Of a stretch of 597 bases of DNA, positions 13-264 are shown piece after piece (positions within the stretch are counted from its first letter, which is position 1; the number at the start of each line of letters is the position of its first letter). Where the stretch lies: the NCBI RefSeq assembly GCF_003334255.1, contig NZ_QOWU01000214.1, one strand, 5' to 3'. Below the pieces are notes generated by a model. That model ran no database searches. It was not told the DNA's origin and saw nothing but the letters and a program-made list of their open reading frames with translations. This DNA comes from Escherichia coli. GTDB taxonomy: Bacteria; Pseudomonadota; Gammaproteobacteria; Enterobacterales; Enterobacteriaceae. The position numbers and the translations under genes are program-made.

Positions 13-264
13 ATGGGATACGGTTTACTGGATATTGCGAATCAGTCACGGCGTGAGGCATTACAGGGAATAAGTGATGCAGACAGACGACGTGAAGAAA
101 TTGAGGCGTCAAACAAGATGATGGCGGCGCAACAGAAAGCACAGCACAAGCAGAATATTGGAACGGGAATTGGTAGCGGTGCTGCTGTGGGGGCTGCCGT
201 TGGTGGCCTTCCCGGTGCCGCTATTGGTGCAGTCATCGGTGGTCTTGCTGGTTCGTTGTTTTAA
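13..264 (+). CDS. Small hypothetical membrane protein (83 aa) with a C-terminal glycine-zipper hydrophobic domain (possible two-helix hairpin); function unknown
   Basis: Complete ORF from ATG 13 to TAA 262..264 with a strong upstream SD. Residues 1-48 are hydrophilic and charged (RREALQ...DRRREEIEASNKMMAAQQKAQHKQN). Residues 49-83 are Gly/Ala/Val/Ile-rich with no charged residue, and glycines sit at 52, 56, 60, 64, 68, 72, 76 and 80, giving seven consecutive GxxxG units. A GGLPG motif at residues 64-68 splits the hydrophobic stretch into halves of about 15 residues each, consistent with a tight hairpin. K42/H45/K46 just before the hydrophobic stretch fit the positive-inside rule with a cytoplasmic N-terminus. 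Family assignment is by architecture only. Confidence 0.8.
   Translation: MGYGLLDIANQSRREALQGISDADRRREEIEASNKMMAAQQKAQHKQNIGTGIGSGAAVGAAVGGLPGAAIGAVIGGLAGSLF

Follow-up and report, generated by a model that had tools for sequence, protein, structure and literature searches.

An 83-residue glycine-zipper protein from the internal-protein cassette of Shiga toxin-converting prophages as a candidate accessory ejection protein

The DNA considered here is a 597-nucleotide (nt) stretch from Escherichia coli (contig NZ_QOWU01000214.1 of assembly GCF_003334255.1), hereafter referred to as the window. At positions 13–264 of its plus strand it carries a gene for an 83-residue protein (ATG start, TAA stop), identified from the list of open reading frames (ORFs) and a profile match as the orthologue of ORF78/ECs1240 of Sp5 and of gp49 of phage phi24B, and as a member of PHROG 594, a family annotated as of unknown function. 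On the evidence given below, the product is rather probably a small packaged accessory ejection (pilot) protein, the glycine zipper of which inserts into the host envelope. What is most likely new is an ejection-protein membrane module that is encoded as a small gene of its own and is at present misannotated; RefSeq names the product “bacteriocin” or, currently, “YMGG-like glycine zipper-containing protein”. A literature search on glycine zippers in ejection proteins and on ECs1240 found nothing on the 83-residue protein. The initial annotation of the stretch had suggested a pore-forming membrane protein. A membrane-inserting or channel-forming role is still the best reading, whereas none of the specific roles listed at that time (holin, toxin, superinfection exclusion, virion membrane) fits, and a packaged ejection protein of the P22 gp7 type had not been considered.

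Residues 49–83 (window positions 157–261) read IGTGIGSGAAVGAAVGGLPGAAIGAVIGGLAGSLF. Glycines occupy positions 52, 56, 60, 64, 68, 72, 76 and 80, that is, a run of eight at i+4 spacing without a break, and additional glycines are found at positions 50, 54, 65 and 77. The segment contains no charged residue and stops at the C-terminus of the protein. Both the eight glycines at exact i+4 spacing and the uncharged segment that reaches the C-terminus, with no tail after the zipper, had been pointed out in the initial annotation and are confirmed by the sequence. Shuffling residues 49–83 (1,000,000 shuffles, 12 Gly kept) produced a run of at least eight at i+4 with a frequency of 1.4e-4, and with a frequency of 7.5e-4 when any period from 2 to 7 was counted. 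The segment can be divided into a first glycine-zipper helix (residues 49–65, positions 157–207; G52, G56, G60 and G64, then G65), a helix-breaking Leu-Pro turn after the GG pair (residues 66–67, 208–213), and a second glycine-zipper helix, G68xxxG72xxxG76xxxG80, ending in SLF-COOH (residues 68–83, 214–261). The first helix is assigned from the sequence and family conservation, the turn from the conservation of Pro in the family, and the second helix from family conservation together with a profile alignment to P22 gp7 (see below). Residues 68–83 are the most conserved part of the protein and also the part it has in common with P22 gp7. Ahead of the zipper, residues 1–48 (13–156) begin with the conserved sequence MGYGL(L/I)D and continue as a long helix that is polar, charged and rich in Gln, as judged from AlphaFold2 (AF2) models and family conservation.

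The protein matched PHROG 594 with E = 2.6e-41, residues 1–83 aligning on 1–85 of 85, and a family profile search of 1.84 billion representative proteins returned 409 clusters at E ≤ 1e-3, mostly full-length and of 76–90 residues. Over 128 family representatives, G72 is retained in 100%, G56 in 99%, G68 in 98%, G76 in 95%, and G52 and G65 in 88% each. Pro follows the GG pair in 89%, some Pro is present in the C-terminal part of 126, and the C-terminal residue is Phe in 74%. Position 80 is Gly in only 40%, with Ser equally frequent, and the G60–G64 stretch varies in length (37% gaps). In the N-terminal helix the conserved positions are A16, G19, L20, E27, R30 and N34, and also K42; R30, with a family conservation of 85%, is replaced by Ile in the present protein. 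Family members differ in their longest i+4 Gly run, which comprises 2 to 9 glycines (mode 5), and just 21 of the 128 representatives reach eight or more. In E. coli prophage alleles of 79, 80, 90 and 97 residues the run is split into two or three shorter GxxxG zippers, and the same is seen in the Aeromonas homologue (85 residues). The unbroken eight-Gly register is a property of the common 83-residue allele and not the conserved feature of the family. The conserved object is a polar helix and two zipper helices with a GG-Pro turn between them, with G68xxxG72xxxG76 near-invariant and a C-terminal Leu-Phe.

The ORF is under purifying selection, with a ratio of nonsynonymous to synonymous substitution rates of 0.11–0.15 against orthologues. 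Both halves behave alike in this respect, and the ORF is therefore a real, constrained gene. Other ORFs of the window, on the minus strand or in alternative frames, are taken as spurious because the plus-frame ORF has homologues and is under purifying selection. The protein is a 100% match to WP_033865457.1 in E. coli EC2. As a separate observation, the length alleles found in E. coli prophages (79, 80, 83, 90 and 97 residues; four loci and three database proteins) vary only in the region of the zipper loop and helix 1, and the steps from 83 to 90 to 97 residues represent 21-nt increments with no obvious tandem duplication.

The genomic setting is that of virion-protein genes. A prophage of E. 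coli strain EC2 contains the window with 100% identity, and 186 phage records match it at 91–95% identity, nearly all of them Shiga toxin (Stx)-converting short-tailed phages, including 933W, Sp5/VT2-Sakai, phi24B and Shigella Ss-VASD (Sepvirinae). The window was matched in 420 of 5426 complete E. coli genomes. In prophages of the 933W/Sp5/phi24B type the gene belongs to the late region, where it lies downstream of lom and of the genes for portal, capsid and tail fibre, within a tight block of ORF75 (133 residues), ORF76 (218), ORF77 (148), the 83-residue gene and ORF79 (421), followed by the gene for a protein of 2793 residues (ORF80). The order ORF75-76-77-78-79, an occasional insert and giant ORF80 is kept in 33 of 33 distant IMG/VR contigs (38–53% identity), and gene starts in these distant relatives commonly run into the stop codon upstream, frequently with a 4-nt overlap. 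The same cassette is found in Aeromonas phage phiARM81mr and Vibrio phage 1.205.O (PHROGs 611, 596, 594 and 601, then a giant protein). A consensus scan found no promoter- or terminator-like sites inside the ORF76–79 block, and terminator-like hairpins on its flanks. Because the synteny is fixed across genera and the gene has no promoter-like site of its own, it is a core member of the cassette and not a moron; the proposal of superinfection exclusion finds no support on the same grounds. A virion-membrane role is likewise unsupported, these phages being tailed and having no lipid membrane.

Likeness to P22 gp7 (PF25688, PHROG 598) constitutes a further line of evidence. This protein, the smallest of the three P22 ejection proteins, has been grouped with T7 gp14-like outer-membrane factors (PMC8954989). 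The Pfam model P22_gp7 (DNA ejection protein gp7) was matched by 18 of 125 aligned relatives of the 83-residue protein at E ≤ 1e-3 (best 1.9e-8) and by 61 at E ≤ 0.1. Alignment of the family with the gp7 family by hhalign gave 95.8% and E = 7e-9, with residues 45–83 on gp7 190–229 and the C-termini end to end, while control comparisons with P22 gp14, gp20 and gp16 gave <1%. The score of the family hidden Markov model (HMM) on gp7 was above that of all 2000 composition-preserving shuffles (z = 7.8 for residues 185–229 and z = 11.4 for residues 153–229). The last 40 residues of both proteins contain a Gly-rich helix, a Pro turn, GxxxGxxxG and a terminal ...GSLF-COOH: the C-terminus of P22 gp7 (229 residues) is TPWGAAIGGGIGLLGSLF, in longer form ...SAIGGGASGAIAGAGLAKLIGSSTPWGAAIGGGIGLLGSLF, and that of the 83-residue protein is LPGAAIGAVIGGLAGSLF, gp7 having S-T-P-W where the family has its Pro turn. 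A Gln-rich polar stretch precedes the zipper in both. Moreover, both genes lie directly upstream of a gene for 420–470 residues, which is followed by that for the largest internal protein. The two differ in that gp7 has an N-terminal domain of ~185 residues and a cleaved 20-residue leader, the 83-residue protein corresponding to the last third only. A narrow gp7-family HMM found no match among the ORFs of the 40-kb prophage region. Natural fusion proteins of 245–257 residues consist of an ORF76-like virion structural domain (PHROG 8003/611) linked to the zipper module (PHROG 594), an architecture like that of gp7. In addition, some database proteins (three were noted) fuse the N-terminal part or the whole of the 83-residue protein to an ORF79-like protein or to out-of-frame sequence; frameshifts in prophage copies or errors of assembly may account for these.

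The best Pfam match of the 83-residue protein itself was Gly-zipper_YMGG (PF13441; E = 7.3e-7, residues 50–82), a model also matched by 54 of 125 relatives at E ≤ 1e-3, which bears out the membrane-type glycine-zipper tail of the initial annotation. Together with the current RefSeq name, this match would speak for a prophage-encoded outer-membrane lipoprotein of the YMGG/OsmB/SlyB type, and the likeness to Gly-zipper_YMGG, OsmB and Rick_17kDa_Anti/SlyB, two short Gly-zipper helices about a turn, is apparent. Zipper proteins of this type are secreted lipoproteins with a lipobox Cys. In contrast, the N-terminus of the 83-residue protein, MGYGLLDIANQSRRE, is polar, with no signal peptide, no lipobox and no Cys; the NCBIfam models for OsmB (11.4 bits, cut-off 98) and YiaD (15.9 bits, cut-off 175) were far from being reached, and the gene belongs to a phage structural cassette. 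A lipoprotein function is accordingly regarded as extremely unlikely. Hardly any credence can be given to a glycine-rich bacteriocin or microcin either, the role under which RefSeq annotates the product and one that the initial annotation had also raised. Besides the “bacteriocin” of the database names, profile matches to Pfam Bacteriocin_IIc (E = 0.0029), MccV (E = 0.86) and the NCBIfam E492 microcin (E = 0.084) could be cited in its favour, but they are confined to the Gly-rich stretch and below curated cut-offs (13.4 bits against 50 for the E492 microcin). Residues 1–30 contain no double-glycine leader, the protein has no Cys, and its neighbours are virion-protein genes, with no export or immunity genes among them.

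Published virion data can be connected to the gene. In a cryo-electron microscopy (cryo-EM) and proteomics study of phi24B (2026 preprint), purified virions contained gp51, gp50, gp48 and gp47, the orthologues of ORF76, 77, 79 and 80; none of the four belongs to the components that cryo-EM resolved. For gp47, the authors propose a location inside the capsid, as a packaged ejection protein. The batch digest of virions also contained gp49, “E. coli bacteriocin”, with 6 spectra, which the authors, in view of its annotated function, treated as a contaminant and left aside. The coordinates of gp49 match those of the orthologue of the 83-residue protein. Its 6 spectra translate into ~3–35 copies by the length normalisation of the authors and into 6 copies by portal reference; the adaptor gp62, present in 12 copies in the phi24B structure, gave the same spectral count. 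The 37-residue zipper half of gp49 has no tryptic site. The detection suggests packaging but not decisively, because Lom and Bor, probably contaminants from membrane debris, gave similar counts.

Deletion data are available for Sp5. In the published deletion study, ORF78 (ECs1240, 83 residues) was removed in frame, the primers leaving just MGY-SLF, and the mutant is outside the nine non-infective mutants and the two with strongly reduced infectivity that are reported there; a small infectivity defect may still exist. The ORF77 deletion is likewise not among the mutants reported there as defective, yet its orthologue is abundant in virions, and dispensability is therefore no argument against a virion location. 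Deletion of ORF78 in Sp5 does not abolish infectivity as reported, and the 83-residue protein would thus seem to make an accessory or redundant contribution, the likely partner being ORF76.

The same data could be read in terms of a late membrane protein of the producer cell, i.e. a holin- or antiholin-like modulator, a superinfection-exclusion factor or a membrane perturbant, the virion signal then being due to contaminating membrane debris. The uncharged zipper would enter membranes, gp49 gave counts as low as Lom and Bor did, the Sp5 study does not list the deletion as defective, and a weak match to a PHROG holin was obtained (PHROG 198, E = 0.77). We nevertheless consider this unlikely. 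The gene keeps its fixed place in an internal-virion-protein cassette in Escherichia, Aeromonas and Vibrio phages and in all 33 viral contigs, has no promoter-like site of its own, and lies among virion-protein genes, outside the lysis cassette. Likewise, the natural fusions to a virion structural domain and the likeness to the gp7 C-terminus are not expected for such a protein, and PADLOC gave no significant defence match (best E = 0.003, no relevant family). The holin proposed in the initial annotation was rejected on account of the location in a structural cassette outside the lysis genes, the poor PHROG 198 score, and an end at the zipper with no charged C-terminal tail. Anti-phage defence was discarded as well, the PADLOC matches being at chance level.

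Structure prediction was less conclusive. AF2 with 6 sequences gave a predicted local distance difference test score (pLDDT) of 57 and helices at residues 3–49, 55–63 and 65–82, and with 125 sequences a pLDDT of 68 and a single helix spanning residues 3–82. The local pLDDT was 73–82 over residues 1–40 and 53–64 in the zipper; the two models are compatible with either a hairpin or a straight helix. The hairpin of the initial annotation is plausible in that the conserved GG-Pro turn splits the zipper into two short helices; what AF2 does not provide is a confident hairpin. A thin bilayer, for instance the outer membrane, or a hairpin set obliquely would accommodate helices of 16–17 residues. Each of the two zipper helices is only 16–17 residues long, and one of these arrangements may apply. 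A search of the PDB found no solved structure for the PHROG 594 family or P22 gp7.

In another possible reading, the protein is an assembly factor or internal anchor that folds, tethers or packages giant ORF80 and its partners and either stays in the capsid or is discarded, with no role at the host membrane. Synteny and virion association would be explained equally well as by an ejection protein, glycine zippers also pack helices in soluble bundles, AF2 favours the single long helix, and the gene shares its dispensability with some assembly helpers. Still, we regard such a role as quite unlikely. The most conserved part of the protein is an uncharged 35-residue segment of the hydrophobic type seen in P22 gp7 and tape measure proteins. 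Furthermore, the Sp5 study describes the heads of the ORF79 and ORF80 mutants as normal in appearance and the ORF78 mutant as infectious, which argues that the protein is not needed for loading the essential components.

Under the favoured assignment as an ejection protein, the 83-residue protein would be made late, together with ORF76, ORF77, ORF79 and giant ORF80, and packaged with them inside the capsid, probably in ~5–20 copies per particle. It would represent a stand-alone version of the gp7-type C-terminal module, namely a polar helix and a two-helix zipper hairpin ending in Leu-Phe. On infection, it would exit the particle along with the other internal proteins, and the uncharged zipper (two helices of 16–17 residues with the GG-Pro turn) would enter the host envelope. 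The small Gly faces could there pack against further copies of the protein or against the Gly-rich hydrophobic segment of ORF76. Zippers packed in this manner would help in forming or anchoring that end of the DNA conduit which is embedded in the membrane, and the soluble parts of the conduit would be in contact with the polar helix.

A number of observations weigh against this assignment. Ejection and membrane insertion are steps that we infer. The mass-spectrometry signal of gp49 is low, like that of Lom and Bor, and the authors of the phi24B study class the protein as a contaminant. P22 gene 7 is needed for DNA injection, and 7- particles fail to inject, whereas the Sp5 orthologue of the 83-residue protein appears dispensable, its deletion lying outside the non-infective and reduced-infectivity classes reported for Sp5. 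AF2 yields one long helix with a zipper pLDDT of 53–64, and hence no confident hairpin. The 83-residue protein itself does not match Pfam P22_gp7 at E ≤ 10. The gp7 similarity spans only ~40 low-complexity residues, for which convergence is possible. Finally, comparisons of ORF77 and ORF79 with P22 gp14, gp20 and gp16 all gave <1%, with no detectable likeness, and the match of the ORF76 family to the N-terminal part of gp7 (residues 22–73) is weak, at just 23% (E = 9e-4) once the fusion proteins are omitted and 90% when they are included.

The neighbouring gene products show related features. The ORF76-like protein (218 residues; positions 18898–19554 of the EC2 prophage record, L002) has a polar helix of its own and a Gly-rich hydrophobic stretch, SLVGAGLGAVGAYAM, followed by GGSGGSGG, and is the second-best match to the zipper-family HMM within the prophage. 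ORF76 and ORF77 are paralogous (76%, E = 2.2e-5), and the N-terminus of ORF76 aligns weakly with the gp7 residues directly after the known cleavage site. In the Sp5 deletion study, ORF79 and ORF80 are among the nine non-infective deletion mutants, and the ORF76 deletion is one of the two mutants with strongly reduced infectivity. The 2026 phi24B preprint reports gp50, the ORF77 orthologue, as an abundant virion protein, and gp48, the ORF79 orthologue, at an estimated 30–55 copies per virion, although the reconstructed virion model does not include it. For gp47 (2811 residues), the spectral-count estimate of 19–35 copies per virion would correspond to 6–10 MDa inside a T=9 head; this figure looks too high, and a bias of the count normalisation is possible.

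Similar zippers occur in other systems. Of eight long, multi-copy family-profile matches that were checked, seven are tape measure proteins (740–1400 residues; PHROGs 12798, 167, 58 and others), in each of which several segments match profile positions 38–82. Such proteins are ejected, and it has been suggested that they act as channel formers in genome entry (PMC10240207). Their zippers are internal repeats in a long tail protein of long-tailed phages, whereas the 83-residue protein is free, belongs to a short-tailed phage, and has a single zipper that is always C-terminal and ends in Leu-Phe. An identity as a tape measure protein is ruled out, the repeat unit being the only thing in common. 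A glycine zipper that resembles those of tape measure proteins is also required for membrane translocation of the type VI secretion system (T6SS) effector Tde1 (PMC10240207). The sole PDB sequence match, a weak one (E = 0.03–0.08), was to the crAss001 cargo protein gp45 (PDB 7qog; chain deposited as ‘Cargo protein 1’), residues 108–150 of which contain ...GAAAGASVGGPIGAIVGGVVG; here a short stretch inside a protein of 842 residues forms the zipper.

A further parallel is provided by N4 gp52/DEV gp73, the small membrane-channel ejection protein of Schitoviridae. The N4 gene order gp52 (150 residues), gp51 (644) and gp50 (3500) resembles that of ORF78 (83), ORF79 (421) and ORF80 (2793), and the EC2 prophage carries a capsid protein of the N4-gp56 family, a capsid family in common with N4. 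Like the 83-residue protein, gp52 is small and has both an amphipathic helix and a hydrophobic moiety, and the purified protein forms channels in bilayers. In contrast to the 83-residue protein, it is hydrophobic in its N-terminal part, which does not form a GxxxG zipper; by inspection, no comparison having been run, no sequence similarity is apparent. Judged by these differences, N4 gp52 is to be seen as an analogue rather than a homologue. A tentative extension, possible though more doubtful than probable, is that a unit of ~40 residues (zipper helix, GG-Pro turn and GxxxGxxxG helix) acts as a portable membrane-translocation module in podophage ejection proteins, tape measure proteins, crAss-like cargo and some T6SS effectors. 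A gp7-like protein of Stx phages would then have been split or duplicated, with ORF76 and ORF77 carrying the N-domain and ORF78 the zipper, the parts reassembling at the membrane end of the ejectosome, and ORF78 would represent the module in its smallest naturally occurring form.

Stx-converting phages spread Shiga toxin genes, their genome delivery is poorly understood, and giant ORF80/gp47 was proposed as an ejection protein only in 2026. If the 83-residue protein is indeed an ejection protein, the “bacteriocin” label would be corrected in 187 phage records (186 of Stx type and Aeromonas phage phiARM81mr), 420 of 5426 complete E. coli genomes and 409 protein clusters. It would also restore a component of the phi24B virion earlier dismissed as a contaminant, and tie the internal-protein cassette of Stx phages to the P22 and N4 ejectosome paradigms. 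A dispensable, stand-alone module of 83 residues is a handy test object for membrane insertion by ejection and tape measure proteins, and if the idea of a portable module is true, ORF78 would serve as a tractable model of how ejected proteins enter membranes.

The remaining features of the window are all located on the plus strand. Positions 1–3 are the TAA stop codon of the upstream ORF77-like gene (148 residues; PHROG 596), as the coding sequence at 19557–20003 of the EC2 prophage (L002) ends at window position 3. The strong Shine-Dalgarno sequence of the 83-residue gene, AAGGAGG, was read directly at positions 2–8, 4 nt before the ATG at position 13. That of the downstream gene, AAGGAG at 263–268, was likewise read directly and overlaps the stop codon of the 83-residue gene. 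The first 107 codons of the ORF79-like gene (421 residues; PHROG 601, by profile match) occupy positions 275–597, where the gene runs off the window; it continues at L002:20275–21540.

Some further observations concern the prophages at large. Four of the 484 matching places in E. coli genomes are on plasmids and not on chromosomes, and may represent phage-plasmids or misassigned replicons. Between the ORF79-like and giant genes an apparently variable slot holds one or two extra genes, of ~300 or of 100–180 residues, at six of the loci. In the EC2 prophage a Hok/Gef-family toxin gene is located between lom and ORF75 (L002:18208–18348), a place with no annotated gene in the Ss-VASD record. Downstream of the giant gene (L002:30141–32609) there is a Panacea-domain gene together with an IbrB-like/PAPS-reductase pair, adjacent to the attachment side (ynfF region); these may be accessory or defence cargo. 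Lastly, phiARM81mr carries at 4862–6495 of its record (L003) a reverse transcriptase annotated as ‘retron-type’ and a small accessory gene amid tail and virion structural genes; the reverse transcriptase could be part of a diversity-generating retroelement acting on a receptor-binding protein.

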